NCBI GenBank assembly: GCA_965261595.1
Contig: CBDHDG010000006.1
Location: 960,001-1,024,000 of the forward strand
Reading direction: 5' to 3'
DNA length: 64,000 nucleotides
Source: a bacterium
Lineage (GTDB): Bacteria; UBA8248; JACPRG01; G963555815
The notes beneath the pieces are model-generated. The model was given only the letters and a program-made list of their open reading frames with translations, was not told the DNA's origin and did not search any database. Shown piece by piece: positions 10,624-62,876 of this stretch. Numbering within the stretch: position 1 is the stretch's first letter; the number at the start of each line of letters is the position of its first letter. The translations under genes and the position numbers were made by a program.

Positions 10624-12024
10624 CTACGGCAGGTCGTTCTTGCTGATCAAAAAATCCCGGACGAGATTGCTCTCTGTCTTGGGAAGTGGAACGGACGATC
10701 CGTTGAGCTCGACGACGGTGCTGGTGGCGTTCCCTATCGTCAGAACAAACGTCTTGTTCCCGCTCCAGCGCCGGCTCTCCCCTTCCAGCAGGAAGATCTC
10801 ATCCCGCTGATTTCCGTCCACAATCACGCGCAGCCAGGTGTCCCCCTTGGCCGTGATGTTCAGAACCAGAGGCGACTGCCAGGAGGATGGGGCGGTTTTT
10901 TTCTTGAGGGTGACTTTCACCTCGGCGTTGTCCACAACCTTTTCGGTTACGGCCTCGCCCGCCGAGGCCGCTCGCGCGTCCGGAGGGGGCGGGGAACCGG
11001 ACTTCGGGATCGTCTCCGCCACCGCGGGCGTCGGCCGGCTGTCCCCCTCGGCCGCGGAGGAAGACGGAAGGATCCCGTTCTTCTTCTCGGCCTGGACTTC
11101 GGGGGTCTTCGGGTTCCGGTCCGCTTTTGGCTTGTTGACCTTCACGGCGGTTTTGGCTTCGGAGACCTTCGGAATTCGGTCCGTCTTCGGCCGGTTGATC
11201 TTCGCGGCGGCTCTGGCTTCGGAGGCCTTCGGCCCGGCCGGGTTCACCACCTTCGGAGCGGCCGGACGGCGCGCCTTTCGGGGGACGGCGCCCACGGCCT
11301 TCTCCGCCGGGGGCTTTTCCCCCTGATCCGGCCCGAGCTTCCACCCTTCGACGTAGAAATAATATCCCACGCCCAGCACCAGAAGGAAGAACGCCGCGGC
11401 GGGGATCCGTGTGCGCAAAGCACGCCGGGACTCCGTGAGCCGGGCGCTCCATTCCGGGAAGATAAAATCGGCCTCTTCCTCAGCTTGCTGGGCGGGGGGA
11501 TGGAACCGGGAGAGAAGGTCATCCGCACTGAGACCGATTTCCGCCGCCAGTATTTTCAGGAACCCCCGGACGATGGGCGTATGCGGGACGTCTTCATATC
11601 GGTCCTCTTCGAGCGCCGATATGATCCGCCCTTTGATCTTGGTGGTGGAAGCCAACTGATCGATGGTGATTCCCGCCGCTTCCCGATGTCGCCGCAGGTA
11701 TTCGCCCAGCGGTTCAGGGGCGGGTGAATCGGCTTCCTCCGTGGAGGGGGGGAGGGGGACATCCTCATCCGGCGCTTTTTCCGTCTGTGAATCCGGGAAA
11801 GACGCGTCCCCCACCGGAGTGAACAGCTCTCCGGGAAACTCATCGTCCAACTTCCCCGAATCCTCATCGGAGACTTCAAGACCCGTCAAACCAGGCTGAA
11901 TCCTATCCGAATAAGCCCCGCTCGAAACATCGGCCGAGGTCTCCCGCGGGGTCTCTTCCGGCGATTGGCCGTTCTGAGCGCCCGTGTCGGATTGAGAATT
12001 CAGATGCTCATCCATGTCACTCAT
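10624..12024 (-). CDS. RodZ-like protein (HTH, TM helix, DUF4115-like C-terminus)
   Basis: LGEYLRRHRE..GITIDQLASTTKI..RIISALEE HTH, one TM helix, Pro/Lys-rich linker, C-terminal TWLRVIVDG...IGNA...NG. Confidence 0.8.
   Translation of the reverse strand: MSDMDEHLNSQSDTGAQNGQSPEETPRETSADVSSGAYSDRIQPGLTGLEVSDEDSGKLDDEFPGELFTPVGDASFPDSQTEKAPDEDVPLPPSTEEADSPAPEPLGEYLRRHREAAGITIDQLASTTKIKGRIISALEEDRYEDVPHTPIVRGFLKILAAEIGLSADDLLSRFHPPAQQAEEEADFIFPEWSARLTESRRALRTRIPAAAFFLLVLGVGYYFYVEGWKLGPDQGEKPPAEKAVGAVPRKARRPAAPKVVNPAGPKASEARAAAKINRPKTDRIPKVSEAKTAVKVNKPKADRNPKTPEVQAEKKNGILPSSSAAEGDSRPTPAVAETIPKSGSPPPPDARAASAGEAVTEKVVDNAEVKVTLKKKTAPSSWQSPLVLNITAKGDTWLRVIVDGNQRDEIFLLEGESRRWSGNKTFVLTIGNATSTVVELNGSSVPLPKTESNLVRDFLISKNDLP
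11098..11232 (-). repeat. Imperfect 60-bp (20-aa) tandem repeat in the RodZ-like linker
   Basis: PKASEARAAAKINRPKTDRI / PKVSEAKTAVKVNKPKADRN / PKTPEV; the DNA lines at 11101, 11161 and 11221 align. Confidence 0.75.
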
Positions 12025-12273
12025 CCATCCACCTTCCCATTCGCCCGAAAGGAGACTGGCCCCCCCTACGGGCAAGCAGATCCCCTGATAAGTCGCGCCA
12101 CCCTTTTCTACAACGAAAAATGTACTACACTTGCAAAAGGAATGTCCAATAAACTAATCACTTAACTCTATATGACGCCTCCGGCCCCACACTTCAATCC
12201 TTCCGGAAAATTCAACGTAATTTTTACATATTGAATATTCGGGACCGTGAATGGCGGACCATCTAAAATTCCA

Positions 12274-12305
12274 TTGACTCCGTACCCGACTCCGGGGATT
12301 ATCTT
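12274..12305 (+). promoter_or_regulatory. MerR-type promoter/operator (merOP-like)
   Basis: TTGACT-CCGTACCCGACTCCGGGGAT-TATCTT. The -35 box and left half-site match Tn21/Tn501 PmerT (TTGACTCCGTAC). Long 19-20 bp spacer with an imperfect CCGTAC-N4-CTCCGG dyad. Confidence 0.85.
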
Positions 12306-12366
12306 GACGATCAGCCTTTGACCACGCCGATCGGCGACACGCCTTCTCCCCTAGGAGCTGAGGATA

Positions 12367-12612
12367 ATGGAACAGAAAGAGGTTACCCTATACACATCGA
12401 GCTTGTGAGCGTCTTGCAGAGGCGTGAAAGAGTTTCTTTCACATCACAGCATTCCCTACCAGGAGCACTTGATCGACCAAGACCAGGAAGCGATGAACAC
12501 CTTGGTTGAGAAAACCGGACGCAAAGCCACTCCCGTGCTTCTCATTGGCGAGGAAACCGTGGTGGGCTTTGACCGTCGAAAAATCTCGGACCTTTTGGAG
12601 ATTGGTCGATGA
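12367..12612 (+). CDS. Glutaredoxin/NrdH-like predicted selenoprotein (UxxC)
   Basis: MEQKEVTLYTSSL-U-ASC-RGVKEFL...TGRKATPVLLIG..VVGFD. In-frame TGA at 12406-12408 replaces the first Cys of CxxC. RBS present; SECIS-like hairpin follows. Confidence 0.88.
12424..12442 (+). promoter_or_regulatory. Candidate bacterial SECIS element
   Basis: Perfect 8-bp stem GTGAAAGA-GTT-TCTTTCAC starting 15 nt after the TGA; loop begins with G. Confidence 0.7.
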
Positions 12613-12968
12613 ACGCTTCAGAGCGAAGGCTCCGCTGCCCTGGCTGCGAAATGGACATTCCAGTCCCGTGGGACGCCAAGAACGGCGACGTTACTGAGTG
12701 TGAGAACTGCGCGGGTGTTCTGTTTCGCCTCTCCGAACAGGACGGCGGGGACATCCTGCGGCTCGTGCTGCTTGTCTCGTGTCCTTTCTGCGAGGAGACA
12801 ATCCCGGTGGACGATAACACGCCCGAGGGGACCGTCATTCGTCACGGGGGGGCGGAATTTTCGCTGACGAAGGAGTTCGGCGCTTTCTCGCTGGAGCTCG
12901 CCGGCGGCCAAAGACCCGGCCTGGTTCCGGCAGCGGACGCGGACAAAGCGCGAGGGACGGCAGGTTGA
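12609..12968 (+). CDS. Small Cys-rich tandem zinc-ribbon-like protein
   Basis: CPGC...CENC...CPFC...H. First half resembles the LysW-type ribbon but lacks the EDWGE tail. ATGA overlap with the glutaredoxin gene. Confidence 0.7.
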   Translation: MNASERRLRCPGCEMDIPVPWDAKNGDVTECENCAGVLFRLSEQDGGDILRLVLLVSCPFCEETIPVDDNTPEGTVIRHGGAEFSLTKEFGAFSLELAGGQRPGLVPAADADKARGTAG

Positions 12969-13267
12969 AGCCGCAAAGATCAATCACGGGAAAAATCATG
13001 CTGGGCGCGGCCTTCTTTCTGTGCCCCTGCCACCTGCCCATCTACCTGGCCCTGTTGGGCGGAACGGCCGCGGGCGCGCTGCTCTCCGAGAACGCGTACA
13101 CCGCCGGGGCCGTCCTGGCCCTCGCGTTCCTCGCGGCGCTCGTTCTGGGGTTGCGCATGCCGGGGAAGAACATTTCCAAGGCCGGGGCCGCCTCGGAGCG
13201 GGACCCATCCGATACCGGAGGGCAACCTCTCCGGCACGGTCGAATCCGGCGGGCGCCCCTTGGATGA
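12965..13267 (+). CDS. merE: MerE-like mercury transporter
   Basis: LCPCHLPIYLALLGGTAAGALLSE matches MerE (TCPCHLPIL...AGTTAGAFLGE). Two TM segments. Start could be the ATG at 12998. Confidence 0.8.
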   Translation: MKPQRSITGKIMLGAAFFLCPCHLPIYLALLGGTAAGALLSENAYTAGAVLALAFLAALVLGLRMPGKNISKAGAASERDPSDTGGQPLRHGRIRRAPLG

Positions 13268-13279
13268 GGGAGAATCGCG

Positions 13280-13618
13280 TTGCGCTTGAAAGAGGTATTT
13301 CCCGGAGCGGCCGGCGTCCTGACTTCCTTGGGGGCCTCCATCTGCTGCCTCCTCCCGCTCGCGGTGATTTACCTGGGACTCGGAACGGGATCCTTCATGG
13401 CAACGACCATGAAGTACCGCCCCATCGTATTTCCATTGGGGGTGATCGGCCTCGGCGCCGGTTACTTCCTTTACTTCCGGGAGCGAAAACGCTGTCGACG
13501 CGTGGCGTGCAGAATGGCGGGCTCCAAAATCAACCTGGCCTTGCTGGCGGCGGCGACGATCATCATGGCGGGTGTCGTGTGGGCCGATTTCTTCTCGGGC
13601 GTCCTGGCCATGATGTGA
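13280..13618 (+). CDS. merT: MerT-like mercury transporter
   Basis: LGASICCLLPL TM1 Cys pair, YRP, cytoplasmic CRRVAC pair, three TM helices. Confidence 0.82.
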   Translation: MRLKEVFPGAAGVLTSLGASICCLLPLAVIYLGLGTGSFMATTMKYRPIVFPLGVIGLGAGYFLYFRERKRCRRVACRMAGSKINLALLAAATIIMAGVVWADFFSGVLAMM

Positions 13619-13635
13619 CGCAAAAGGGGGAAGCG

Positions 13636-13968
13636 ATGTCAGGCGTGCATCGTCCGTGGAATGGGTTGAAATGTGTGGTTCTGGCGGCCGTCTTCGCCAT
13701 GGCGCTCGGCGGGTGCGAAGGAGACCCGGTTCCATCGGCCGAAGCCGGGGAGCGGGTGACTCTGAGGGTTTCGGGGATGACGTGAGGCGCCTGAGCGGTC
13801 ACCGCGAAACCAGCCTTGGAAAGGCTGGATGGAGTGAGAAAAGCCCGGGTGAGCCTCTCGAAGGGAGAGGCGTACGTCACGTATGACCCAAGCCGGGTCA
13901 CGGTGGCGCAGATGATTGCGGCCATCAACCGCCTGGGGTTCAAAGGCGGCATGAAAGAAGGATCGTAG
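13636..13968 (+). CDS. MerP-like HMA lipoprotein with two predicted selenocysteines (GMT-U-GA-U)
   Basis: Signal peptide with LGGC lipobox, then VTLRVSGMT-TGA(13783)-GGC-GCC-TGA(13792)-AVTAKPALERLDGVRKARVSLSKGEAYVTYDPSRVTVAQMIAAINRLGFK. Read-through gives a complete HMA fold, in the merP position after merT. Confidence 0.88.
13810..13828 (+). promoter_or_regulatory. Candidate bacterial SECIS element
   Basis: Perfect 8-bp stem CCAGCCTT-GGA-AAGGCTGG starting 15 nt after the second TGA; loop begins with G. Confidence 0.72.
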
Positions 13969-14073
13969 GCGGGCCTCGATGGGTCCGCGGAGAGGATTTC
14001 CGCTGATCGGATACGGCCGATGGTCCGGGTGGTCTCCTTCGGCCGGGATACGTTGAGTGGGGGCATGGACAAT

Positions 14074-14301
14074 ATGGAAGATAGAAAGCTGCTTCGCACG
14101 GGAGGCGCGGGGACGGTTGTTGCCGCGATTTGCTGTTTCACGCCGGCCCTCGTCCTGCTGTTCGGGGTGATGGGTCTATCGGCCTGGGTCGGTTGGCTGG
14201 ATTACGTCCTTTGGCCCGCGCTTGTGATATTTGCCGGAATGACGGTCTATGCCCTTATCCGGCTGAGGAAGAAACCATCCGTCCACCGCAAAGGGACCTG
14301 A
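14074..14301 (+). CDS. merF: MerF mercury transporter
   Basis: KLLRTG..GTVVAAICCFTPALVLLFG..GLSA..GWLDYVL.PAL..F matches MerF. Start 14065 or 14074. Confidence 0.88.
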   Translation: MEDRKLLRTGGAGTVVAAICCFTPALVLLFGVMGLSAWVGWLDYVLWPALVIFAGMTVYALIRLRKKPSVHRKGT

Positions 14302-14802
14302 TTCAAAGAAAGGCCGAATAATGAGGTTTTGGTCTTTTCTTCTTTCCATCAAGACACATCTCCCTTCGCCAAGACCAAAACTTTCCTCGCGAGCCGATCA
14401 AACCAATAGTTGAGGGGTCCAAGATGGCTGAGTCCTTGCGTTCCAAAGAGGGTTCCTTGACATTGATTGCCTTGATCGCGGGAGGGGTCTTGCCACTCCT
14501 GATCGTTTTTGGCTCCGCCCGTCTACTGCCCATGCCGACCCTTTTCTGGGCTGTCGGCGTCCCGGCGGAAATCGTTCTTTTTGGGGTTCTGCTCTACGCT
14601 CGTTCGGCCGGACCGGAGCGCTTGTATCGGAGGCTTTGGGTGGGGTGATCGGCGGCGTATTGCTCACCTTGTCATTGGATGCCGTCCGAACCGCAGGGGT
14701 CAACATCGGTTACCTTCCGGATTCCGTGTCGATGTTCGGGCGCTTGGAGTTGACCCGGTTTGGTGGACACCTGATGATTTGGGGGTAAAGGAGGTGTTCA
14801 CG

Positions 14803-15117
14803 ATGCCACAGACTCACCCACGCTATCCAATGGAGTTCCGCTGCCAGATGGTAGAGTTGGTCCGGGCGGGACGCACGCCCGAGGCGCTGGCGCACGAGTT
14901 CGAGCCCTCGGCGCAGACGATCCGCACCTGGGCCCATCAAGCCGACGTTGACGAGGGGCGTCGCAAAGACGGGCTCACGAGCGATGAGCGGGAGGAGTTG
15001 CGCCGACTTCGCCGCGAGAACCGACAGCTCCGCCAGGAGCGGGAGATCTTAGCAAAAGCCGCGGCCTGGTTTGCTCGGGAGACCGATTCGATCCCGTCCG
15101 GATCTACGGGTTCGTGA
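14803..15117 (+). CDS. IS3 transposase OrfA
   Basis: YPMEFRCQMVELV...TIRTW...LRRENRQLRQEREIL.KAAAWFA. Confidence 0.9.
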   Translation: MPQTHPRYPMEFRCQMVELVRAGRTPEALAHEFEPSAQTIRTWAHQADVDEGRRKDGLTSDEREELRRLRRENRQLRQEREILAKAAAWFARETDSIPSGSTGS

Positions 15118-15965
15118 GGGCGAACCAGGCCATGTATCGGACCGCCACCATGTGCCGGGTGCTGGGCGTCTCCTCCAGCGGCTACTACGCGTGGCGCAGG
15201 CGCGCGCCGTGTGCCCGCTCGTGTGCCGATCGGGCGCTCACCAAACGCATTCAGGCGATCCACGAGCGTTCTCGGGGGACTTACGGCGTGCCGCGCGTCC
15301 ATGCCGAGTTGGAGGCTGAGGGAGTGCGTGTGGGCCGCAAGCGCGTCGCCAGGCTGATGCGTGGGGCGGGACTTGCGGGCGTCAGTCGGCGCAAGGGAGC
15401 GCGCACGACGCAGCGCCGGCAGGAGGCGCGGCCGGCCCCTGATCTGGTGGACCGCAACTTCACGGCCGAGGCCCCCGACCGGCTGTGGGTGGCCGACATC
15501 ACCTACGTTCCGACATGGGCGGGGTTTTTGTATCTGGCCGTGGCGCTCGATGCGTTCAGCCGGCGCATCGTGGGGTGGTCGATGGCCACACACCTGCGGG
15601 CCGAGTTGGTGCTCGACGCGCTCGACATGGCGCTGTACAAGCGCCGTCCCCGGGCCGTCATCCACCACTCCGACCAGGGCAGCACGCAGTACACCTCGGT
15701 CGCCTTTGGGCAGCGCTGCCGGCAGGCGGGCGTGCGTCCCTCCATGGGTTCGGTCGGGGACTGCTACGACAACGCGCTGTGTGAGAGCTTTTTCGCCACG
15801 CTGGAGTGCGAGCTCCTCGCTCGCCACAGTTTCCGCACCCGGGCCGAGGCGCGCATGGAGGTGTTCGGGTTCATCGAGGGCTTCTACAACCCGCATCGTC
15901 GGCACTCCTCCATCGACAACCTGTCACCCGTTAACTACGAAAGGAGACAACAACGCACACCCTGA
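15114..15965 (+). CDS. IS3 transposase OrfB (DDE)
   Basis: WVADITY, HHSDQG..QY, DNALCESFF, YNPHRRHS. Confidence 0.93.
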   Translation: MRANQAMYRTATMCRVLGVSSSGYYAWRRRAPCARSCADRALTKRIQAIHERSRGTYGVPRVHAELEAEGVRVGRKRVARLMRGAGLAGVSRRKGARTTQRRQEARPAPDLVDRNFTAEAPDRLWVADITYVPTWAGFLYLAVALDAFSRRIVGWSMATHLRAELVLDALDMALYKRRPRAVIHHSDQGSTQYTSVAFGQRCRQAGVRPSMGSVGDCYDNALCESFFATLECELLARHSFRTRAEARMEVFGFIEGFYNPHRRHSSIDNLSPVNYERRQQRTP

Positions 15966-16289
15966 AAACCCAAGTGCTTAACTCTCCACGAAACCGGGGT
16001 AAGTCCATTGCGTTTGGAGTGGTCTATTCAATCCTTTTTGGAAAGACCCGATGGTGGGGCGCCGTGCTTTATAGCGTCTTCTTTGTAGAGCTTGGCATGA
16101 TGACCCTTCCACCGATGGCGAAAATGATGGGACCTTTCGGCGTCAACAAGTTCGGCACAATTTGGAACGGGATGTTCATAACCACATTGCTCGCTCACGC
16201 CGCGATGGGGGTTGTGCTCGGTGTTGTGATTCAGAAGTGGGGAAAGCACCCCGGTTTGTTTTTCTCAAGTAGAAGCATAGGCGCGTAGT

Positions 16290-16538
16290 GTGGTGCTATC
16301 GGAACTTCATATCGAGGGCATGACGTGACCCAAGTGCGTCAAACGGGTCCGTGAGTCCCTGAAAAAATCCCCGGGAGTTCAGGACGTCCAAGTTTCTTTG
16401 GAGACGGGACGGGCCGTTATTTGGATGAAAAAAGGAAGCCTACCCACAGAGGACCTCCTCGAACAGGTGGTGGAAGCGGCCAAAGGCGCCTTCCATTCCT
16501 ACGTCGCCCGCTGGGTTAAACCCCCCTCTTCGAATTAA
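16290..16538 (+). CDS. Cytoplasmic HMA-domain predicted selenoprotein (GMT-U-PK-C)
   Basis: GTG start; LSELHIEGMT-TGA(16326)-PKCVKRVRESLKKSPGVQDVQVSLETGRAVI... to TAA. A CopZ/NmerA-like fold after read-through. Not in the ORF track. Confidence 0.82.
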
Positions 16539-16687
16539 GCCGCATCCGCTGATTCGGAGAGTCATCAGCACCAAATCCCGAACCCTTTTCGGACTCCACG
16601 CAGATGAGACAATCAGAGAGACCCCGGCTGTCATCCAATGCTCCTCGAAGCCGATCTGGATTTTGAGGGAAGCGTTTGGAGAGCGAC

Positions 16688-18044
16688 ATGGCTTTAAAGT
16701 CATACGACCTCATCGTCATCGGAACGGGGTCTGCGGCCTCTGCGGCAGCATCCGAATGCCGCACCGCCGGGTGGACCGTGGCGGTTATCGATTCCCGTCC
16801 TTACGGGGGGACATGCGCCCTGCGCGGCTGCGACCCCAAGAAGGTGCTCGTCGCCGCGGCCGAGGCCCTCCACTGGGGGCATCGCTTGAGGGGCCGCGGG
16901 GTTCGTCCCGGCGATGCGCGGATCGACTGGCCCGAGTTGATGGACTTCAAGCGCACGTTCACCGAATCCGTGGCGCAGAGCCACGAGCGGTGGTTCGCCG
17001 AAGTCGGGATCGACGGATACCACGGGCGGGCGAAGTTTATCGGCCCCGTCTCTGTTCAAGTCGGCGGCGACGATCTGGAGGCCAAACACGTCTTCATCGC
17101 CTCCGGCGCCATGCCGGCCAGGCTCGGGATCCCGGGAGAAGGGCATCTGATCGCGAGCGAAGACTTCCTTGAGCTGGACGAGCTGCCGGAGCGTATCGTT
17201 TTCGTGGGGGGCGGCTACATCTCCATGGAGTTCGCGACCGTTTCCGTCTGCGCCGGAGCTGAGGTCACCGTCCTTCACCGGGGTCCGCGACTCCTGCGTG
17301 GATTCGATCCCGGCTCGGCGGACTTGGTCGCGGAGGCGGCTCGCGGGAGCGGCATCGACCTGAAGTTGGAGACTCGGGTCGAAAGCATAACAAAGACTGC
17401 CGGCGGCTTTGTCGTTGAGGCATCCTCACCCGCGGGATCGCAAACGGTTGAAGCCGACTTGGTGGTGCACGGCGCCGGTCGGGTGGCTGAGATTGAGGAT
17501 CTCGACCTGGGAGCGGCCGGCGTGGAGCGGGGGAAGCGGGGAGTATTGGTGAACGAGTATCTGCAAAGCACCTCGAATCCGGCGGTCTATGCAGCGGGAG
17601 ACGCGGCGCGAAACGGAAGGACAGCCTCTCACGCCCGTGGCAGGGGTCGAAGGAGGGGTTGTGGCAGCAAATCTATTAAATGGGAACAAAGTTAAGCCTG
17701 ATTACACCGGAACGGCAACAGTGGCATTCACATTGCCGCCGATTGCCGCGGTGGGACTGAGAGAAGATGAAGCCAGGAAGAAGGGGCTCAAGTTTCAGGT
17801 GAATTTCCAGGACACGTCTGGATGGTATTCGACACGGCGCATGGGCGAGAAATACTCGGCATCCAAGGTGTTGGTCGAGGAAGACACGGGGCGGCTGCTC
17901 GGTGCGCACCTCCTCGGGCCGTCTGCGGATGAGCTGATCAACCTCTTTGCGCTTGCCATCCGCCACGGTCTCACCGCCGAGGGTCTAAAGGAGGTGATCT
18001 TCGCGTATCCGACGCACGCGTCTGACGTGGGTTATATGGTCTGA
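16688..18044 (+). pseudogene. Class I pyridine nucleotide-disulfide oxidoreductase (glutathione-reductase-like), frameshifted near 17608
   Basis: YDLIVIGTGSA, GGTCALRGCDPKK, GGGYI, VYAAGD in one frame, then QPLTPVA...GAHLLG...YPTHASD in another. The single extra base may be real or an assembly error. Confidence 0.85.
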
Positions 18045-18100
18045 AGAGCACGCCCTTTGTCCAATTTCGTGATGAGAAAGGGTCATTTGGGAGATGTCAA

Positions 18101-18717
18101 ATGGAAACCTCAAAATTGCCTCAGCTCAGAGAGCATTTCAATCAGGCATGCGATTCCGTGAGGGTTCTTACAATCCTCTCTCCTACCTAACCCGTATGTC
18201 ACTACGGGCATGGAGTTGTCCGGAAGCTCTTCGAGGAGATTGACGCGAATGCGCTCAAGGGTTTTTCAATATGGCTTCCCATCATGGACGGGGACAACGC
18301 CGATGCCGCGAGGGCCGAATCAGAGAATTTCCCGGATGAACGGGTAGAGCACAGTTGGGATTCCGAAGGACAATTTGGCCGGCTCTTTGCGAAGTTTCTC
18401 AATTTGAAAGGTGTCGCGTGGGATGTTCACTTGCTCTACGCGCCGGGTGTCACCTGGGGTGTGGATGAGCCGCCCAAACCTGCATTCTGGATGCACCAAC
18501 TTCCTCCAGTAACGGGAGCCGATGGGAAACTTCTTTGAACCCAGGTAGATTTTCACACGAGCTGATGAATCTCCTTGGAAGAGAGGATCCGCATATGGCT
18601 TGGGATATGGCCTTTATGTTGCACGTTGGCGGTATTGGCGGGGTCATGAGGGAGAGGGCTCAGTCTTCACTGGAAGAGGTCCTCAAGGCCGTCGATCCTA
18701 CGAAGGAAGGACCGTGA
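18101..18717 (+). pseudogene. Thioredoxin-fold protein with TAA at the predicted Sec position (SPT*PVC) and a frameshift near 18535
   Basis: METSKLPQLREHFN...VRVLTILSPT-TAA(18188)-PVCHYG... is in frame with the 18284 ORF (WLPIM...WDVHLLY...W...PAFWMHQL). The C-terminus continues in a shifted frame. Confidence 0.7.
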
Positions 18718-18721
18718 ATCG

Positions 18722-19150
18722 ATGAAGAATTGCCCGGAGGTTCCTATGGAATCCTTGACGATCGAAAAGGTCGCCCGCGGGGCGGGTGTGAACGTCGAGA
18801 CGGTTCGCTACTACGAGCGCAGGGGGCTGATCGAGCGGCCAACCAGCCGGCGGGGGGCTTACCGGGTCTATCCGTCCGAGACCGTCGGCCGCATCCTGAG
18901 CATCAAGCGCGCCCAGCGGCTCGGGTTCTCCCTGGATGAGATCAAAGAGCTGTTGGCCATGCGATCGGACGCCCGGGCCCGGTGCGGCGACGTGCGCGTC
19001 CAGGCCGAGCGGAAGATGGCCGAGATTGAGGAGAAGATCAAGGCCCTGCGGGCCGTGAAGAAATCGCTCGGCAAGCTCGCCGACGCCTGCCGGAGGGAGC
19101 TGCCTGTGACGGAGTGCCCGATTCTGAAAAACCTGAGCGGGGTTTCCTGA
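18722..19150 (+). CDS. merR: MerR-family metal-responsive regulator
   Basis: LTI..VA..AGVNVETVRYYERRGL, IKRAQRLGFSLDEIKELL. Three Cys (RCGD, ACRR, ECPIL) at Hg-MerR-like positions. Start could be 18746. Confidence 0.88.
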   Translation: MKNCPEVPMESLTIEKVARGAGVNVETVRYYERRGLIERPTSRRGAYRVYPSETVGRILSIKRAQRLGFSLDEIKELLAMRSDARARCGDVRVQAERKMAEIEEKIKALRAVKKSLGKLADACRRELPVTECPILKNLSGVS

Positions 19151-19456: not shown

Positions 19457-19516
19457 TGGGTCCTTCCTCCTTTGCACTCCGGTGGTCGGAGAGGAAGTCC
19501 GCCCCTCTCCTCATTC

Positions 19517-19606
19517 TTCGGCGGGCCGGCTGTCTGGGGGGGAGATGATTTCAGACCCAGACCCGTGCCTTTGCGTCCCGGCCTCTCGACCGGTTTGCCC
19601 TTATCG
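19517..19606 (-). ncRNA. Cyclic di-GMP-I (GEMM-I) riboswitch
   Basis: Minus strand reads GGGCAAACCGGTC-GAGA-GGCCGG-GACGCAAAG-GCACGGGTCT...GACAGCCGGCCCGCCGAA: GNRA tetraloop plus the GEMM consensus blocks. Confidence 0.88.
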
Positions 19607-19781
19607 AAACAAGGGTCACTCAATTCCGCAGGTGCGAATCCTTTCGAGGAATCACGAAAATAATCTATCCATACGATACTTATCGGCGGGAAGGGCGACG
19701 GGCTTTAGCCCGAAATTCCAATCCAAGGAAGGGGCGAACCCTATTTCACCATTTCGGCGATCACGCGGATCGGGTCCGCCT

Positions 19782-49889: not shown

Positions 49890-51332
49890 GAGCCTGTCCC
49901 ATTCATAGTTGCAGGTTGAGAAAAAGAGGTGGCGGTTCACTCCTGCCGACTCGGTTAGAATCGGGTTGGCAAACATTCAAAGAGGAGGAACCGCCATGAG
50001 TGAAGCTTACCAGATCATCGAGAAGAAAGAGACCCAAAGGTTGGCCGCCTTTGTGGCGGAGCACGGGCAGGCGTTTTTTCCTCTGGTGTCGCTGGTGGAG
50101 CAGTCCCAACTGGCGGTGGAGGACCTGATGGACGTCATGGGCCGGGCGGGCCTGGAGGCCGTGCTTTTGCTGTCGGCCAAGGGCTTGACGGGCGCGCCGC
50201 ATCCAGGCAAGCGGGGTGGCGAGGTCCGCCGGCACGGCAGCCAGGGGGGCCGGGTGACCCTGAAGGGGCGCAAGCTGAAGGTGAGAAAGCCGCGGCTTCG
50301 CCGCCGGGGCCAGGGTCGGGGCGGGGAGGTGGAGGTGCCGGCGTATGCGGCCATGCAGGCCGACCCCGGGCTGGGGGAGCGGATGCTGGATTTGCTGATG
50401 CGAGGGGTCTCGACGCGGAACTACGCGGCCGTTCTTCCCGAGCTGGCCGAGACGGTGGGGGTGTCGAAGTCGGCCGTGAGCCGGGAGAGCATCGAGGCGG
50501 CCGAGGCGGAGCTGCGGCGTCTTTGTGAGCGGCGTTTTGACGACATCGACCTCCTCATCCTCTACCTGGACGGTCTGCGCTTCGGCGCGCATCACGTCAT
50601 CGTGGCCGTTGGGGTGGACACACGGGGCCAAAAGCACGTTCTGGGCCTGAGGTCGGGCGCCACCGAGAACGCCACGGTCGTGACGGCGCTTCTTGAGGAG
50701 TTGGTGGAGCGCGGCGTGCGGCCCGGGCGGCGTCGGCTTTTCGTCATCGACGGCTCGAGGGCGCTTCGTGCGGCGATTGACCGGGTGTACGGGGACGACA
50801 ATCCGGTGCAGCGGTGCCGCAACCACAAGGTGAAGAACGTGATGGACCACCTGCCCGAGGAGTTGAAGGACCCGGTGAAGGCGACGATGAAGGCGGCCTG
50901 GCGGCTGGCGCCGAAGGAGGGGATTGCCCGTCTGCGCAAGCAGGCCCGGTGGCTTCAGATCGAGCATCCGGACGCGGCCGCCAGCCTTTTGGAGGGTCTG
51001 GAGGAGATCTTCACCGTCAACCGCTTGGCTCTTCCGCCCGGCCTTCGGCGCTGCCTGGTGAGCACGAACCTGATCGAGAGTCCCTGTTCGGGGGTGCGGA
51101 TGCGCACCCGGCGCGTCGGCCGCTGGCGGGACGGGGCGATGGTGAAAAGGTGGGCCGCTTCCGCCTTCCTCGCCACCGAGAAGAACTTCCGTCGCCTGGA
51201 CGGCTACCGGGACCTGTGGATCCTGAAGGCCGTTCTGGACGAGCCCCGCTTTGACACCCGAGAGGAGGTCGCATAAGGTGAACCACACACGGACCGCCGC
51301 CTCAAACCTTCAACTGAATTCGGGACACCCTC
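49890..51332 (+). mobile_element. Intact IS256-family element with 8-bp target duplication
   Basis: Inverted repeats GAGCCTGTCCC / GGGACACCCTC; CTGGCGCT duplicated at 49882-49889 and 51333-51340. Confidence 0.94.
49996..51276 (+). CDS. IS256-family transposase
   Basis: AGGAGG RBS; GVSTR, YLDG, VIDG, QRCRNHK, STNLIES. Confidence 0.93.
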   Translation: MSEAYQIIEKKETQRLAAFVAEHGQAFFPLVSLVEQSQLAVEDLMDVMGRAGLEAVLLLSAKGLTGAPHPGKRGGEVRRHGSQGGRVTLKGRKLKVRKPRLRRRGQGRGGEVEVPAYAAMQADPGLGERMLDLLMRGVSTRNYAAVLPELAETVGVSKSAVSRESIEAAEAELRRLCERRFDDIDLLILYLDGLRFGAHHVIVAVGVDTRGQKHVLGLRSGATENATVVTALLEELVERGVRPGRRRLFVIDGSRALRAAIDRVYGDDNPVQRCRNHKVKNVMDHLPEELKDPVKATMKAAWRLAPKEGIARLRKQARWLQIEHPDAAASLLEGLEEIFTVNRLALPPGLRRCLVSTNLIESPCSGVRMRTRRVGRWRDGAMVKRWAASAFLATEKNFRRLDGYRDLWILKAVLDEPRFDTREEVA

Positions 51333-51514
51333 CTGGCGCTGGGCGAGAGCCTGCCCACGATCGGCAAGCTGCTCGGTCACAGTCAAGTATCAACGACAGC
51401 ACGTTATGCGCACTTGATGCGGGATGCGGAGAAGGAAGCCGCGACCCGGGTGGGCGACAGCATCGGCGCCCACATCGGACCGCGGAGCACCGAGGCGGCA
51501 TGAGGCTGGATGAC

Positions 51515-52704
51515 ATGGCGAAGCTGGAATACAAGACGCTCTCGAACCGAACGGTCGAGAAGCTGAAGGTAGAAAAAGACACGGTGTTCTGGGATCACGA
51601 GCTCACCGGCTTCGGGATGCGGGTCTATCCCGCGGGCGGCAAGGTCTATGTCGCCCAGGCCCGGGGACCGGGGGGACCGAAGCGGGTCACGGTGGGCCGG
51701 CACGGGGTGCTCGGCGCGGAGCAGGCACGTCAGCGGGCGGCCCTGATCATCGCCCGAGTCAAGGCCGGCGAGGAGCCGGTGCCCGAGCCCATGGCGGTGA
51801 AGCTGTCCGGTGGGCCGACAGTGGGCCAGCTTGCGAGGCGGTTTCTCGAAGAGCACGTGGCGGTGCGCTACAAGCCGAGCACCATGAAGTCGACTCGCAC
51901 GGTGGTGAATCGTCATATCGTGCCCGCCCTCGGTCAGCTACCGCTGGAGGCGGTCAGCCGCGCACGGGTCATGGAGCTGCATGACGAACTCTACGAGACC
52001 CCTGCGATGGCGAACATGGTGGTCCGCACCCTGTCGCTGATGTACAGGCTGGCCGAGAGCTGGGGGCTCGTTCCGGAGGGATGCAACCCCTGCCGGCTGG
52101 CGGTCAGGTTTCCGGAGCGCAAGCGGGAAAGGTTTCTGACCGATGGAGAGTTCACCCGCCTGGGAAAGGTGCTGGATGAGGTCGAGACCCGGGGCGGCGC
52201 GTCGGCATCCGCGGTGATCGCTCTCCGTCTGCTCATGCTGACCGGGTGTCGGAAGAACGAGATCCTGACCCTGCGGTGGGAGGACGTGGCGCTGGATCAG
52301 AACGAATTGAGACTGCCCGACGCCAAGACGGGCGCACGGGTGGTTCCATTGTCGCCCTCGGCGGTGAGGCTTTTTTCCGGTCTGCCGCGAGAACCGGGCA
52401 ACCCGTGTGTCATTCCCGGCCGGAAGCCGGGCACGCATATGAGCAACGTGGATCAGGCCTGGCAGGTCATCCGGGCGAGGGCTGGCCTGGAGGACGTCCG
52501 GATCCATGACCTGCGTCACAGCTTTGCGTCCAGGGCCCTGGCGCTGGGGGAGAGCTTGCCGATGATCGGAAAGCTGTTAGGCCACAGCCAGGTCGAGACC
52601 ACGGCCCGGTACGCCCATCTGGCGCGGGATTCGGTGCAGGAGGCCGCGGAGCGAATCGCCGACAGCATCGCGGCCGACATCCTGGGCGAAGGCTGGATGC
52701 CGGC
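51515..52704 (+). CDS. Tyrosine integrase (arm-binding type), extreme C-terminus abutting IS3
   Basis: WDHELTGFGMRV, TGCRKNE, K, HDLRH, LLGH, RYAH catalytic set; paralog of the upstream integrase. Confidence 0.9.
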
Positions 52705-53974
52705 TGGAGTTACCCCGGTTTGGTGGAGAGTTAAGCACTTGGGTTTTCAGGGTGTGCGTTGTTGTCTCCTTTCGTAGTTAACGGGTGACAGGTTGTCGAT
52801 GGAGGAGTGCCGACGACGCGGGTTGTAGAAGCCCTCGATGAACCCGAACACCTCCATGCGCGCCTCGGCCCGGGTGCGGAAAGTGTGGCGAGCGAGGAGC
52901 TCGCACTCCAGCGTGGCGAAAAAGCTCTCACACAGCGCGTTGTCGTAGCAGTCCCCGACCGAACCCATGGAGGGACGCACGCCCGCCTTTGGGCAGCGCT
53001 GCCCAAAGGCGACCGAGGTGTACTGCGTGCCCTGGTCGGAGTGGTGGATGACGGCCCGGGGACGGCGCTTATACAGCGCCATGTCGAGCGCGTCGAGCAC
53101 GTCGAGCACCAACTCGGCCCGCAGGTGTGTGGCCATCGACCACCCCACGATGCGCCGGCTGAACGCATCGAGCGCCACGGCCAGATACAAAAACCCCGCC
53201 CATGTCGGAACGTAGGTGATGTCGGCCACCCACAGCCGGTCGGGGGCCTCGGCCGTGAAGTTGCGGTCCACCAGATCAGGGGCCGGCCGCGCCTCCTGCC
53301 GGCGCTGCGTCGTGCGCGCTCCCTTGCGCCGACTGACGCCCGCAAGTCCCGCCCCACGCATCAGCGCCTGGCGACGCGCTTGCGGCCCACACGCACTCCC
53401 TCAGCCTCCAGCTCGGCATGGACGCGCGGCACGCCGCAAGTCCCCCGAGAACGCTCGTGGATCGCCTGAATGCGTTTGGTGAGCGCCCGATCGGCACACG
53501 AGCGGGCACACGGCGCGCGCCTGCACCACGCGTAGTAGCCGCTGGAGGAGACCCCAGCACCCGGCACATGGTGGCGGTCCGATACATGGCCTGGTTCGCC
53601 CTCACGAACCCGTAGATCCGGACGGGATCGAATCGGTCTCCCGAGCAAACCAGGCCGTGGCTTTTGCCAGGATCTCCCGCTCCTGGCGGAGCTGTCGGTT
53701 CTCGCGGCGAAGTCGGCGCAACTCCTCCCGCTCATCGCTCGTGAGCCCGTCTTTGCGACGCCCCTCGTCGACGTCGGCTTGATGGGCCCAGGTGCGGATC
53801 GTCTGCACCGAGGGCTCGAACTCGCGCGCCAGCGCCTCGGGCGTGCGTCCCGCCCAGACCAACTCTACCATCTGGCGGCGGAACTCCATTGGATAGCGTG
53901 GGTGAGTCTGTGGCATCGTGAACACCTCCTTTACCCCCAAATCATCAGGTGTCCACCAAACCGGGTCAACTCCA
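52705..53974 (-). mobile_element. IS3-family insertion sequence (copy 2, orfB frameshifted)
   Basis: Same inverted repeats, orfA and orfB as 14745-16007 in the opposite orientation; frameshifts and a 9-bp duplication (LDVLDALD). Confidence 0.93.
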
Positions 53975-54252
53975 GTCGAGAGAGTGAGGAAGCTCTAGAC
54001 CGACTTGGAACGACGGTTGACGGCGGCCTTGGAGAGGTTGTCCGCGCAGTACGAGACGGAACAGCGGCGGCACTCAGAGCAGGTCGAGGCCTTGCGGCTG
54101 CAAGTCGAGCGACAGGCCGAGCAGAGCGAAGCCTTGCAGAGGCAGGTCGAGCGGCTGGCCGAGTACTACGGAACGCTCGCCGCGAGGTCGCGCGGCCGCT
54201 GGATCTGACGCGCCAGCGTGGACGAGAGCGCGATCATGGTCCGAGCCGCTAG
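53975..54252 (+). pseudogene. Remnant of a relaxase C-terminus with an overlapping MbeD/MobD-like coiled-coil ORF
   Basis: TDLERRLTAALERLSAQY resembles MbeD; the overlapping frame ends RQRGRERDHGPSR, like MOB relaxase tails; cut by IS3. Confidence 0.55.
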
Positions 54253-54310
54253 AGGAGTCCCGGCAGCGGAATCGGCCGGACGCTACGAGCATCGACGGAG
54301 GTCTCGGGCG

Positions 54311-56089
54311 CTATTGGATTGACTCGGTCTTGCCGAAATGCTCGGCGACGTTGCCGCTTATCTCGACATTGAGCCTCTCGTCCAGAGAGTAGTTATCGAA
54401 TAGCCAATTCAGTGCTTCGTAATGACGTGTCATGAATTCGAGCAGGTCAGGACCAAAGCAGACGACCCCCGGCCTCAGCTGAGCGACAGAACACAAGCAG
54501 CACGCGATCACCCCCAGGGTCACTCCCTCCGTGGAAAGGAAGTAGAACCAATAGGGAAATGCGTCGTCCAGCTTGGAGCAGAAGCGCCGTACCTCCGGGA
54601 TGTCGCGTAGTTCTCGCGAGTCGCTGGAGTAACCGAAAAAGGCTAAGTCTACCCGCCCCCGATACCGTTCGACGGCGTCCCTGTCAGCGAGCACACGCGA
54701 CAGGGTTGCCGCCGTACCGGACACGTCGAGGGCTTCCACTTCCGAGCGGTCTACGACCACACGAAGCCAGTCGGCACCCAAGTCTTCCCGGAACCCCATT
54801 CCAGCAGCCTCGTCGGTTACCCAATCGCCCGATATGGGAGCGGTAATGATGGGGCTCCCCTCCGTGACAGCTTGAACCCGTTCGTGCGTAGTCGAGTCTG
54901 GCGCGTTCCCTGTTCCAGTTGGATCGTACACCACCGTCTTCCCCGTACGAAGGCCAAATCGGCTACGTGGGAACACGCCATGCGCGCAGGCGGCCGAGAA
55001 GATCTCCTTCAGCGTCCCTACGAAGCTCTCCTCGGTGGTCCGGAAGAAGGTTAGCTGTTGAAACTCTGTATGATCCAGAAGTAGGCAAGGAATGCCCGTG
55101 TCGTTGAATACGGTAAAGACAGGTGAGCTGCAGGTTGGTCGCTCCGGGTCGAACATCTCCTTGACGATGACGAGTCCGAAGACGTCGCGGCCGGACGTGG
55201 ACACTTCGCGGCTCTTCTTCTCGGTAGAGATCTCAATGGGATCCCCAGATCGGAGGTGATTGATTGATCCCTTCAACTGGCGGGTTGCCCTCCTTACATG
55301 GTGGGCAACGGTGGCCTTCTTGCGATCGATCTTCCGGTTCAGTGCTGACTCGTCGCTTGGGCTATCCTTGGCCTGAACCAGGAGGAGGGTCTTGTCCGTT
55401 ACCACCAGAACGTCTACGAATTCTCGTCCGTTGTCGGCGCGAATCGGGTTCGCGAAGACATTGTCACTCCCGAACGACCGATGCAGGGCGTTGGCTATGT
55501 CAGGATCGTTGAGATCGCCTGGGTTTTCGACGTTTTCTTCCAGGCTGTCGGGAAACAGCCGCTCCCGCAGGTGGATAGTGAACGCAGCGGCGTCGTCCGA
55601 CGGCGAGCGAGCGCCGAACCGGGATTGCATCACGTCGAGGACCTGGCGCGCTCGGTCAAGGGTTGGCGACGCGAAATGAATCGTATTCGAGAGTACGCGG
55701 AAGCGATGAGCATCCGGGTTCTCAGCTCGGAAGCCGAGCAGTTCCCGATTGTGCTCGTCGAAGAAATGGACATAGAAGGCGTCCGACGAGAGCAGCAAAA
55801 CGAAATCTCGGGTGATCTCCTCGTGGAAGAGTGGTGTCTGGATGACGAGCGGTTCATCGTTGTCGTCGAAGAAGGCTGTCACCAGACCATACGTAACCAC
55901 GCTGCCGGCATGGACAGGAACCAAATAGAAGCGGAATCCTTTGCGCAGTTTGGCCGTTTGAGCCGCCTCTCTCGAGGTCTTCACAACGAGGATCATTCGC
56001 GAGTCCCCAGGGCGGCGAATGGGCCATAGGCCGACTGGAATGTCCACGAGCGTGTCCAGAACCTCCGGGTTTGTTACGGTAAGCTTCAT
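54311..56089 (-). CDS. Hypothetical protein with a PD-(D/E)XK-like domain and a C-terminal DUF1817/CRR6-like domain
   Basis: REFVDVLVV...LLVQAK; C-terminal D.REL..IPEVR.F..KLD..FPYWFYFL. Confidence 0.65.
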   Translation of the reverse strand: MKLTVTNPEVLDTLVDIPVGLWPIRRPGDSRMILVVKTSREAAQTAKLRKGFRFYLVPVHAGSVVTYGLVTAFFDDNDEPLVIQTPLFHEEITRDFVLLLSSDAFYVHFFDEHNRELLGFRAENPDAHRFRVLSNTIHFASPTLDRARQVLDVMQSRFGARSPSDDAAAFTIHLRERLFPDSLEENVENPGDLNDPDIANALHRSFGSDNVFANPIRADNGREFVDVLVVTDKTLLLVQAKDSPSDESALNRKIDRKKATVAHHVRRATRQLKGSINHLRSGDPIEISTEKKSREVSTSGRDVFGLVIVKEMFDPERPTCSSPVFTVFNDTGIPCLLLDHTEFQQLTFFRTTEESFVGTLKEIFSAACAHGVFPRSRFGLRTGKTVVYDPTGTGNAPDSTTHERVQAVTEGSPIITAPISGDWVTDEAAGMGFREDLGADWLRVVVDRSEVEALDVSGTAATLSRVLADRDAVERYRGRVDLAFFGYSSDSRELRDIPEVRRFCSKLDDAFPYWFYFLSTEGVTLGVIACCLCSVAQLRPGVVCFGPDLLEFMTRHYEALNWLFDNYSLDERLNVEISGNVAEHFGKTESIQ

Positions 56090-56290
56090 TGGGGACGCCT
56101 CAAAGGGTGGCCTAGCGTGTCGGAGAAGGAACGTTGGAGTGAAGCCTCGTAGCAAGCTTCGCGGAGCCTCTACCTACGATCAAGGCAAGGCCTCCAGGGT
56201 CGCGCTAAAGGTGAGCCCCGGCGCGGGGCAGGCGGCTCTATCCCAGCGGGCCAACATGAGATGCCTTGGCGGTGTTACTGCGGTGTCTCC

Positions 56291-56797
56291 CTACTCGATC
56301 TCTCCAACCCTGCACCGGTCCAGATAACACGCCCAGTCGTCCATGAGCCGACGCCGCCACTCGAACAGGTCCGTACGTCGGTACGCCGCCTCGACTTGGT
56401 TGTGAACCACATGCGCTAGCGCCGCCTCCGCTACCTCGCGGGGATGGTCGGTCTCCTCGGCGGCCCAGTCCCGGAACGATGACCGGAAGCCGTGCGGCAC
56501 CGCCTTGATCCCGAGCCTCTTGAGCAGTCTGGACATCGCGGTGTTGGAGAGCGGTTTTCCGCGCATCGGGAACACGAGCGGACTGCTTCGACCCAACGCC
56601 AGCGCCTCCTCCAGAACCTCCAACGCGCGACGAGTAAGGGGGGCCCGGTGCTCGCGGTTCGGCTTCGTGCGCGGGGCCGGAATGGTCCACACCCCATGGT
56701 CCAGGTCGATCTCCGTCCACGCGGCCCCGCGGCCCTCGCCGCCGCGCGTCGCTGTCAACACTAAGAACTCGAAGGCCAGCACAGCTATCGCCGCGCC
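56291..56797 (-). pseudogene. C-terminal fragment of a P4-like tyrosine integrase
   Basis: LTATR.GE, WTIP, HGFRSSFRDWAAE, EAALAH, AY.R.DLFE.RR.LM..W. Confidence 0.85.
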
Positions 56798-57406
56798 ATG
56801 AGCGAAGAGGAGGGGTGGGCACACTACGGCTCCACCACGGCGAGGGGAACGATCCACCTGGCTGCGGCTGGGCCTTCCGGTCCATGGTTCCTCGCGCTGG
56901 ACCACGCCGGCGTCGTCGAGGATCTGACGCAGCCGCGCGCCGAGATGCCGGGCCCCGGTCTTGCGCGCTACGCCTTCGCCACGCTCACCGATCTCTACGC
57001 CGTGCTGCCCAAGGTTTATACTCTCGGGCGCACGCTTCCCGAAGGCCCGCTCGAAGATTTCCGCGACAAGACCTGCGGCCTGCCGAAGACGACGGAGGCC
57101 GAGCGCCTTGTCGTCCAACGCATCGGCCAGGACATCTTTCGTGACCGCCTGCTGACCTACTGGCAGGGCCACTGCCCTTTGACCGGAATCACGGACAGGA
57201 CCCTGCTGCGCGCCTCGCACATCATTGCGTGGGAGGACTGCCCCGACGACGCTGAACGGCTGAACATTCACAACGGCCTGCTTCTGTCAGCGCTTTGGGA
57301 CGCGGCCTTTGACAAGGGTTTGGTGACCTTCGACGACGATGGACGGCCAGAGTTCTCGCCTCTCCTGAGCGAACCGGCACGTTCCGCGCTGCGCTGGTCA
57401 AGTTAA
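56798..57406 (+). CDS. HNH endonuclease (probably truncated)
   Basis: RIGQ..FR..L, CPLTG, ASHI..W, NGLLL, D..FD.GL..F. Confidence 0.8.
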   Translation: MSEEEGWAHYGSTTARGTIHLAAAGPSGPWFLALDHAGVVEDLTQPRAEMPGPGLARYAFATLTDLYAVLPKVYTLGRTLPEGPLEDFRDKTCGLPKTTEAERLVVQRIGQDIFRDRLLTYWQGHCPLTGITDRTLLRASHIIAWEDCPDDAERLNIHNGLLLSALWDAAFDKGLVTFDDDGRPEFSPLLSEPARSALRWSS

Positions 57407-62338: not shown

Positions 62339-62876
62339 AGCGGGAGAGGGGCGAACGCCGCGAGGAGGGAGAGAGAGGGCCCCGGGCACCGGCAACACGG
62401 AAGGAGAACCGAAATGCAATCCGTCACTTTCAAGTGCATCGCCCCGTACGAGTCGAGGGTCTACCACGATGGCAATCTCGCCTGCGAGGTTGCGGAGCCA
62501 CTCGTCGATACGCGTCCGTTGCGGTGACGGGCCATGCCGTCTTCGGGCGATCCCTTCGGGCCGGGATCCCCGCTGCAATCTCCGCTCCGCTCCGATTTTC
62601 GCTTCCATCCCTATCGCCTCCGCTCGCTGGCGCTCGCTGCGCGCTCCTGTACCTCTTATAAGTGACTCTGCGCTTCAATAGCACGGAATTGGGCAGGCCG
62701 CCGGGAGCAACCCTTGCGCGCTCAGTGCCATCAGCACCTCAAGCGGACAGGTGCCCCGGCGGTCCTGCCACGACGGATGCCCCGTGAGGAGTTAGCGCCT
62801 TGAGCGCCAAGTACAGGAGTCGGCAGGCGTCGTGGCAGGCCCAGCCACCATCGCACAGATTAGGGAGGGAGACGAA

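Follow-up and report, generated by a model that had tools for sequence, protein, structure and literature searches.

A 110-codon open reading frame (ORF) that carries TGA codons at both metal-ligand positions of an HMA domain was identified in a 64,000-nucleotide (nt) stretch of bacterial DNA (GenBank assembly GCA_965261595.1, contig CBDHDG010000006.1, forward-strand positions 960,001 to 1,024,000; GTDB lineage UBA8248), which was analysed at its full length and is referred to here as the window. Judging from the sequence and its relatives, both UGAs are very probably decoded as selenocysteine (Sec, U), and the gene would then encode a genuine UxxU selenoprotein. Taken jointly, the evidence suggests that the product is probably a secreted, lipid-anchored HMA selenoprotein of the NF041115 family that hands over Hg(II) to Mer-type importers; the hand-over of Hg(II), considered by itself, is the role towards which we lean on account of the gene context. 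A preliminary description of the same ORF had placed the frame at 13636-13968 and the two TGAs at 13783 and 13792, with 57 codons from there to the TAG, and all of these coordinates proved right.

When TGA is read as U, the translation runs through RVTLRVSGMT-U50-GA-U53-AVTAKPALERLDGV..., with 49 codons lying 5' of the first TGA and the 57 in-frame codons 3' of the second ending at TAG. The encoded protein begins with a hydrophobic N-terminus, closed by L-G-G-C27, and continues through a short linker into the HMA domain. The GC content at third codon positions stays coding-like on either side of the TGAs, as it is 0.71 before and 0.74 after them, whereas the two alternative frames of the 3' part give 0.58 and 0.47. 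The 57 residues past the second TGA by themselves score 66.4 bits (E 1.9e-18) on NF041115, with the next family at 38.7 bits. By itself, the string TGA-N6-TGA is common and occurs 34 times when both strands of the window are counted, so the distinctive part is its in-frame placement on both metal ligands of the HMA domain. Once the two Cys codons are restored, there are 36 single-substitution routes to a stop across 32 codons of the ORF, and the probability that two random nonsense changes hit exactly codons 50 and 53 is about 0.0016. That two independent nonsense mutations were an unlikely explanation, as had been proposed initially, is thus upheld by this estimate and by the homologues (98% and 90% identical) that are truncated at the same codon.

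The comparison with homologues was made at the ligand columns of a 31-sequence alignment, where codons 50 and 53 align with an invariant Cys in all 30 other sequences, pairing Cys with each of the TGAs. A word-indexed search at near lengths returned 25 matches, all with Cys at both ligand positions, and a search among shorter proteins yielded four candidates (P0027-P0030), every one of them significant. Two of these, P0027 (98% identical, 56 residues) and P0028 (90%, 56 residues), terminate exactly at ...RVSGMT, while P0029 (96%, 50 residues) and P0030 (74%, 44 residues) span the part after the motif alone; six member sequences stand behind P0027, and P0028 differs from them as a variant of its own. 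A diverged variant thus retains the stop at the first ligand codon, and the reading frame beyond it is both open and conserved. A HMMER search of 1.84 billion representative sequences gave 11,499 matches, of which the best 150 are almost all multi-HMA proteins; among these 150, the sole close representative is the truncated P0027, and no full-length UxxU relative is present. Such selenoprotein genes get stored truncated in protein collections, as is shown again here.

These homologues also bear on two technical explanations, a sequencing or assembly artefact and a genome-wide reassignment of TGA, to which together we give practically no weight. An apparent frameshift at another place in the cluster might stem from misassembly and would be in keeping with an artefact, but the gene calls on other contigs stop at the same codon in both the six members behind P0027 and the distinct P0028. 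Reassignment was ruled out by the use of TGA as a stop in 22 of the 34 genes with Pfam support in the window, including the gene immediately upstream of the UxxU ORF (35 ORFs had been given, one of which runs off the end of the window).

A hairpin suited to a bacterial selenocysteine insertion sequence (SECIS) lies just 3' of the two codons, its loop beginning 23 nt past the second UGA and 32 nt past the first. The 41-nt segment that contains it folds at -15.5 kcal/mol, with a z-score of -3.9 against shuffled sequences. According to the available portion of PMC13188914, the bacterial SECIS consensus has a loop of 3-9 nt, a stem of 4-16 bp, a G in the first two loop positions, a spacing of 16-37 nt, and a folding energy of -7.5 kcal/mol or lower, and the hairpin at 13810-13828 falls within all of these bounds for both UGAs. 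As a control, we used Cys-type loci from a scan of genome contigs with the UxxU protein, which found 438 relatives, with a best match 57% identical and the source genome absent from the loci returned, and from which 80 were kept (loci numbered L001 onwards). The best SECIS-like stem reached at least 8 bp in 2 of the 80 control loci and at least 7 bp in 5 of the 80. Moreover, the hairpin shares its geometry with those of the glutaredoxin-like genes described below, which in the window, L005, and L017 alike lie at positions 19-37 counted from the UGA. Rfam models gave nothing up to E = 5 in the region 12300-16600 and, at the gathering threshold, nothing in the whole window besides a c-di-GMP riboswitch. 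With a clear SECIS candidate in a gene of only 110 codons, the locus presents itself as a compact test case, and its two UGAs, which lie 9 nt apart and would share one hairpin at distances of 23 and 32 nt, could serve to probe the spacing tolerance of SelB-dependent decoding.

The family assignment of the protein rests on both sequence and structure models. Pfam HMA covers residues 42-103 over model positions 1-62 of 62 (E 2.1e-14), and the best NCBIfam match is NF041115, "UxxU_metal_bind, metal-binding (seleno)protein," at 98.1 bits (E 2.3e-28), an equivalog model of a 74-residue domain with a curated cut-off of 95 bits; residues 39-106 align with its positions 4-71 of 74. The gene is, accordingly, a member of an already catalogued, uncharacterised family and not a new kind of protein. 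The NF041115 cut-off is also reached by 3 of the 10 Cys-type relatives tested (P0002 with 108.1 bits, P0006 with 98.7, and P0004 with 97.6). An AlphaFold2 model built on the 31-sequence alignment has a predicted local distance difference test score above 90 over the HMA domain, with elements in the order E39-46, H51-62, E67-73, E78-83, H90-99, and E103-106; U50 falls in the loop that leads into helix 1, and U53 in the first turn of that helix, while the low confidence of residues 1-28 is what a signal peptide would be expected to give. In this predicted model, a complete beta-alpha-beta-beta-alpha-beta HMA domain runs through both UGAs. A Foldseek comparison with the PDB returned HMA domains only, including, at 36-40% identity, the MerP structures 1osd (template-modelling score 0.94) and 1afi (40% identical), without separating MerP from copper domains, and a sequence search of the PDB agrees (1afi, E 2.3e-12).

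The reading offered in the preliminary description, namely an HMA or MerP-like fold with TGA at both ligands, an intact and conserved frame, and a lipobox, is supported by the translation, the Pfam and NF041115 matches, the score of the downstream part, and the structure model. The label "MerP-like" holds for the fold (1osd) and fails for the MerP equivalog TIGR02052, on which the protein scores 60.6 bits against a cut-off of 92.55. Three CopZ models, NF033795, NF033794, and NF047957, gave 61.8, 54.6, and 51.5 bits, respectively, with cut-offs of 91, 95, and 85; a cytosolic CopZ copper chaperone was rejected on these sub-cut-off scores and on the presence of the N-terminal hydrophobic signal.

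That signal is a candidate lipoprotein signal by rule. Lipoboxes follow the pattern [LVI][ASTVIG][GAS]C within the first ~35 residues, behind a charged n-region and a hydrophobic core, and the UxxU N-terminus carries Arg6 and Lys12 and a hydrophobic core that spans residues 13-24, together with L-G-G-C27, the candidate lipobox at codons 24-27 (13705-13716). P0028 has L-S-G-C in place of L-G-G-C, which is the more canonical form, and the lipobox is absent from the other family members in the 31-sequence alignment. Among the Cys-type relatives P0003-P0024, several of them from Gemmatimonadota, most carry a conserved C-D-L-C (also C-E-L-C or C-N-L-C) after the signal-peptide core, a motif not found in the UxxU protein of the window. 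This motif is possibly a second metal site or an unusual lipobox.

Table 1. Positions of the UxxU gene, its elements, and the surrounding cluster within the window
Feature	Position	Strand	Remarks
UxxU HMA (seleno)protein gene	13636..13968	+	110 codons; ATG 13636, TAG 13966-13968
First UGA (candidate Sec50)	13783..13785	+	Codon 50; loop ahead of helix 1; invariant Cys column
Second UGA (candidate Sec53)	13792..13794	+	Codon 53; first turn of helix 1; invariant Cys column
Candidate signal peptide with lipobox L-G-G-C (Cys27)	13636..13716	+	By sequence rule only
Candidate bacterial SECIS hairpin	13810..13828	+	8-bp stem, GGA loop; extended helix 13800-13836
Candidate sigma-70-like promoter	12274..12302	+	TTGACT, 17 nt, GATTAT; 9/12 consensus matches only
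Glutaredoxin-like candidate selenoprotein, SSL-U-ASC	12367..12612	+	First cluster gene; UGA 12406-12408
Double zinc-ribbon (LysW-like) protein	12609..12968	+	ATG overlaps upstream stop
MerE-like small membrane protein, LCPC motif	12965..13267	+	PF05052 E 1.3e-8; NF010310 41.7 bits, below cut-off 80
MerT-like transporter	13280..13618	+	CC in first membrane helix, CRRVAC in loop; weak MerT/MerTP matches, 23-27 bits, below cut-off
MerF mercury transporter	14020..14301	+	NF033565 93.4 bits, cut-off 50; PF11431 E 5.6e-20; probable start ATG 14065
IS3-family element splitting a DUF6789-like membrane gene	14745..16007	+	Flanks 14424-14744 and 16008-16288
Second HMA ORF, GMT-U-PKC	16290..16538	+	Without signal peptide; UGA 16326-16328
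FAD pyridine-nucleotide disulfide oxidoreductase	16688..18044	+	Frame-shifted near 17610-17625; no C-terminal Cys pair
MerR-family regulator	18722..19150	+	Cys80, Cys115, Cys124; TIGR02051 128.8 bits, below cut-off 150.85; CueR 102.8 bits

The role of the protein was examined through the genes around it (Table 1). By function, a MerP would be an exported HMA protein encoded beside merT in an operon that also has merA and merR; here, an HMA protein bearing a signal peptide has a MerT-like gene 5' of it, MerF 3' of it, and a MerR-type regulator in the cluster, but the oxidoreductase stays below the MerA cut-off. Three Mer-type importers (MerT-like, MerF, and MerE-like) flank the UxxU gene, MerF scoring above its curated cut-off. 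No TGA lies in frame within the MerT-like gene. The best match of the regulator is the Hg-type MerR (128.8 bits versus 102.8 for CueR), and the 35- and 9-residue spacing of its three Cys is, we presume, the pattern of Tn21 MerR. The order of MerR, MerT-like, HMA, and oxidoreductase genes recurs in L001-L005, L012, and L017; of the five best loci, four have MerR, four have a MerT-like gene directly 5' of the HMA gene (L001-L004), and three have the oxidoreductase. This synteny, as far as sequence can tell, supports a functional unit. The site had initially been proposed to be a very high-affinity periplasmic trap, and the importers and MerR in the gene context would fit a hand-over at least as well. 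In L002 (5602-6480, + strand; a metagenome-assembled genome of Blastocatellia), a single protein joins the MerT-like part to two HMA domains and is followed by a thioredoxin-fold ORF and the same type of oxidoreductase.

The mechanism that we propose would begin with SelB acting on the single hairpin and delivering Sec-tRNA twice within three codons. Signal peptidase II would then cut at Cys27, which would be lipidated, and a linker of 10-12 residues would tether the HMA domain to the cytoplasmic membrane on its outer side. Hg(II) or another very soft metal ion would be captured at this place by a diselenolate in fully ionised form, and ligand exchange would carry the metal on to the Cys pairs of the MerT-like, MerF, and MerE-like importers encoded in the same cluster. 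Once it is in the cytosol, the UxxC HMA protein, the glutaredoxin-like Sec protein, and the FAD disulfide oxidoreductase may handle the metal, with the MerR-type regulator in control. At neutral pH, selenols are ionised, and their ligand exchange is fast, properties that would favour capture and transfer.

Several observations weigh against this interpretation. The margin of the protein on NF041115 is only 3 bits above the cut-off, and its metal specificity is left unsettled by sequence, neither CopZ (61.8 bits) nor MerP (60.6 bits) attaining its cut-off. The motif reads MTCGAC in all 80 genome loci, and U occurs in 0 of them; the scan pattern, GMTCGACA, was written with Cys codons and favoured Cys forms, so this count is no measure of how rare UxxU is. 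Neither selA, selB, selD, nor a tRNA-Sec gene was found within the 64-kb window, and the case for Sec use by the organism thus comes from three candidate genes only. The first UGA, at 32 nt, is close to the 37-nt limit of the SECIS model, and the folding energy of the 48 nt past the motif is matched or beaten in 25 of the 80 Cys-type controls. The hairpin stem is unusual and its energy is not; folding energy alone was accordingly discarded as a SECIS test, being uninformative in this GC-rich family. The oxidoreductase lacks the C-terminal Cys pair of MerA, and the far half of the cluster is damaged by the IS3 insertion and the oxidoreductase frameshift, making decay of the locus conceivable. 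Lastly, Hg-Se bonds are stronger than Hg-S bonds, and release to thiol acceptors would be uphill, which argues for a sink.

The damage within the same cluster (an insertion in the membrane gene and a frameshift in the oxidoreductase) and the lack of visible Sec machinery in the window would be consistent with a pseudogene, in which two nonsense mutations struck a decaying metal-resistance island and a 49-residue lipopeptide or nothing is made. Such decay is very unlikely, however, in view of the small probability of hitting exactly both ligand codons, the 90% homologue that stops at the same codon, the conservation of the downstream part (96% and 74% identity, with a family-specific score of 66.4 bits), the SECIS-like hairpin at the right distance, and a curated family that has exactly this UxxU pattern as its defining feature. 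The distance of the first UGA, near the model's limit, and the demand that we infer to be placed on one hairpin serving two UGAs 9 nt apart, would suit partial readthrough, with the UGAs acting mainly as a selenium-dependent gate, the first of them poorly decoded, and the product mostly truncated or carrying one Sec. Against this stand the U at both positions of the curated family, listed with "2 Sec," and the failure of HMA-type metal binding that would be expected once one ligand is missing, and we consider partial readthrough extremely improbable as the main outcome.

A genuine UxxU selenoprotein might also have another job, as a non-releasing periplasmic sink for Hg or methylmercury, as a binder of Cu(I), Ag(I), or Cd(II), or as a diselenide redox protein. 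The strength of the Hg-Se bond favours a sink; the copper-chaperone HMA models score as well as MerP, Foldseek does not set MerP apart from copper domains, and the cluster has no canonical MerA, as the combined score of the oxidoreductase is below cut-off. The portion available of a 2026 review likewise states that the roles of metal-related selenoproteins need more study. These other roles are set against the three flanking importers, the Hg-type regulator, and the MerT-like gene that directly precedes the HMA gene in four of the five best loci and is fused to it in L002, and we hold them to be unlikely, if deserving of attention. Between capture with transfer and a sink, the sequence cannot decide; hand-over of Hg(II) by a UxxU selenoprotein nevertheless stays the role that we favour.

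The cluster holds two further candidate selenoproteins. The glutaredoxin-like ORF scores 73.6 bits on TIGR02196, below the cut-off of 88.55, and has its in-frame TGA in a U-x-x-C motif, followed 23 nt after the UGA by a hairpin at 12424-12442 with an 8-bp stem and a GUU loop. Homologues with TGA at the same codon were found in two loci from metagenome-assembled genomes of Acidobacteriota, L005 (7461-7700, + strand) and L017 (3610-3840, - strand). The hairpins of all three have 8 bp and a G-U-N loop, and L017 differs from L005 by one compensatory change of U-A to C-G. The second HMA ORF (16290-16538) reaches 59 bits on CopZ_AFE_1862 (cut-off 85), its hairpin evidence is weak (z -0.57), and it lies just 5' of the oxidoreductase in the damaged half of the cluster; from its sequence, it may be a cytosolic selenoprotein. 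Whether the cluster as a whole forms a selenium-based Hg(II) relay without canonical MerA, in which the periplasmic UxxU lipoprotein, a cytosolic UxxC HMA protein, and a UxxC glutaredoxin-like protein would move the metal from one selenolate site to the next across the membrane and would belong to one MerR-controlled operon with a single SECIS used twice within three codons, is a tentative idea that we consider doubtful at present. If all of the cluster's selenoproteins are real, selenium would act at several steps of soft-metal handling, with a bearing on mercury cycling in anaerobic or low-oxygen settings and on Hg-Se antagonism.

The oxidoreductase merits separate mention. Its two pieces score 198 and 90 bits against MerA, for which the cut-off is 454, and its C-terminus, ...YPTHASDVGYMV, is without the MerA C-terminal Cys pair. 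Intact orthologues (55-65% identical) in L002, L004, and L005 keep a single frame, and that of L002 ends alike, so this type of oxidoreductase, which is not MerA, is conserved and the frameshift is particular to the window sequence. The frameshift may be a real mutation or an assembly error. The IS3-family element upstream of it has a second copy at 52705-53974 (- strand), 97.3% identical to the copy at 14745-16007, and the left flank of the interrupted DUF6789-like gene also shifts frame near 14620-14645.

In comparison with known systems, the sequence reading of a double-Sec metal site stands and its novelty does not, since the pattern is covered by the curated NF041115 model, by reviews of 2022 and 2026, and by a Sec-containing "MerP" in a 2008 table. 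In the portions of these sources available to us, the 2026 review lists a UxxU metal-binding family with 2 Sec, the 2022 review (PMC9312934) lists "Putative mercuric reductase, PRK13748, UxxU," and the 2008 GOS paper (PMC2398784) lists the selenoprotein "Mercuric transport protein MerP" with two sequences. The reviews, in those portions, credit the original family description to the 2007 Olavius paper (PMC1976440), the accessible main text of which does not name the family and has no occurrence of "mercuric reductase" or "UxxU." The available part of a 2022 preprint on metal-related selenoproteins mentions MerT-family selenoproteins and makes no mention of the UxxU HMA family. A literature search, in the passages it retrieved, found no experimental study of the UxxU metal-binding family, the statements found all being computational predictions, and it returned no Mer-type operon with several selenoproteins.

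Compared with the NF041115 family itself, the window member shares the single HMA domain with Sec at both ligand positions (98.1 bits versus 95), whereas it lies near the cut-off, has an N-terminal lipoprotein-type signal where the model describes the 74-residue domain only, and is clustered with two further candidate selenoproteins; the available portions of the literature consulted for the family say nothing of its context or lipidation. MerP of Tn21/Tn501 (TIGR02052; 1afi, 1osd) has the same fold, export, place of the GMT-x-x-x-x motif, and adjacent Mer-type membrane transporters, but the window protein scores 60.6 against a cut-off of 92.55, would use Sec instead of Cys as ligands, has a lipobox, and belongs to an operon without canonical MerA. 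MerP of Tn21 is a soluble, cleaved form. The CopZ/Atx1 chaperones and the HMA domains of P-type ATPases share the HMA fold and motif position, but they are cytosolic with at most one Sec, unlike the window protein with its signal peptide and two predicted Sec. Sec in place of Cys in the HMA motif was already known from a "cation-transporting ATPase E1-E2" (UxxC), as given in the accessible text of the 2026 review and PMC2398784. The MerT/CopZ fusion-like selenoprotein NF045683 and the MerT-family selenoproteins likewise combine Mer-type transport parts with Sec, although the window protein reaches only 40.3 bits on NF045683 (cut-off 375), and transporter and HMA domain are separate genes here. 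Other UxxU selenoproteins, a Prx-like thiol:disulfide oxidoreductase and an FmdB-family putative regulator, also have two Sec three residues apart and presumably one SECIS, but their folds are unrelated and their presumed roles are redox or zinc-ribbon ones.

Further observations concern the surroundings of the cluster. The promoter-like site (12274-12310) starts with TTGACTCCGTAC, which, we take it, resembles the -35 element and left operator half-site of the Tn21 mer promoter; promoters controlled by MerR typically have a 19-nt spacer, as opposed to the 17 nt here. The gene with two LysW-like zinc ribbons is translationally coupled to the glutaredoxin-like gene through an ATGA overlap. GC content dips to 52-58% at 11800-12800, 13800-14800, 15800-16800, and 17800-18800, compared with 65-70% in the flanking mfd, aroE, rodZ, and helicase genes, and these dips hint that the metal cluster was acquired horizontally. 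Matches to the PurH protein form a tight lineage at 100, 96, 95, 94, 78, 77, and 73% identity, beyond which identity falls to 55% or lower. Just past the MerR gene, on the opposite strand, lies a c-di-GMP-I-GGC riboswitch (19516-19608, - strand; 70 bits versus a gathering score of 59). Finally, a patch of mobile elements at 49909-57406 and 62796-63998 contains a Mutator-family transposase, two phage-type integrases, the second IS3 copy, an HNH endonuclease, and an IS110-family transposase.

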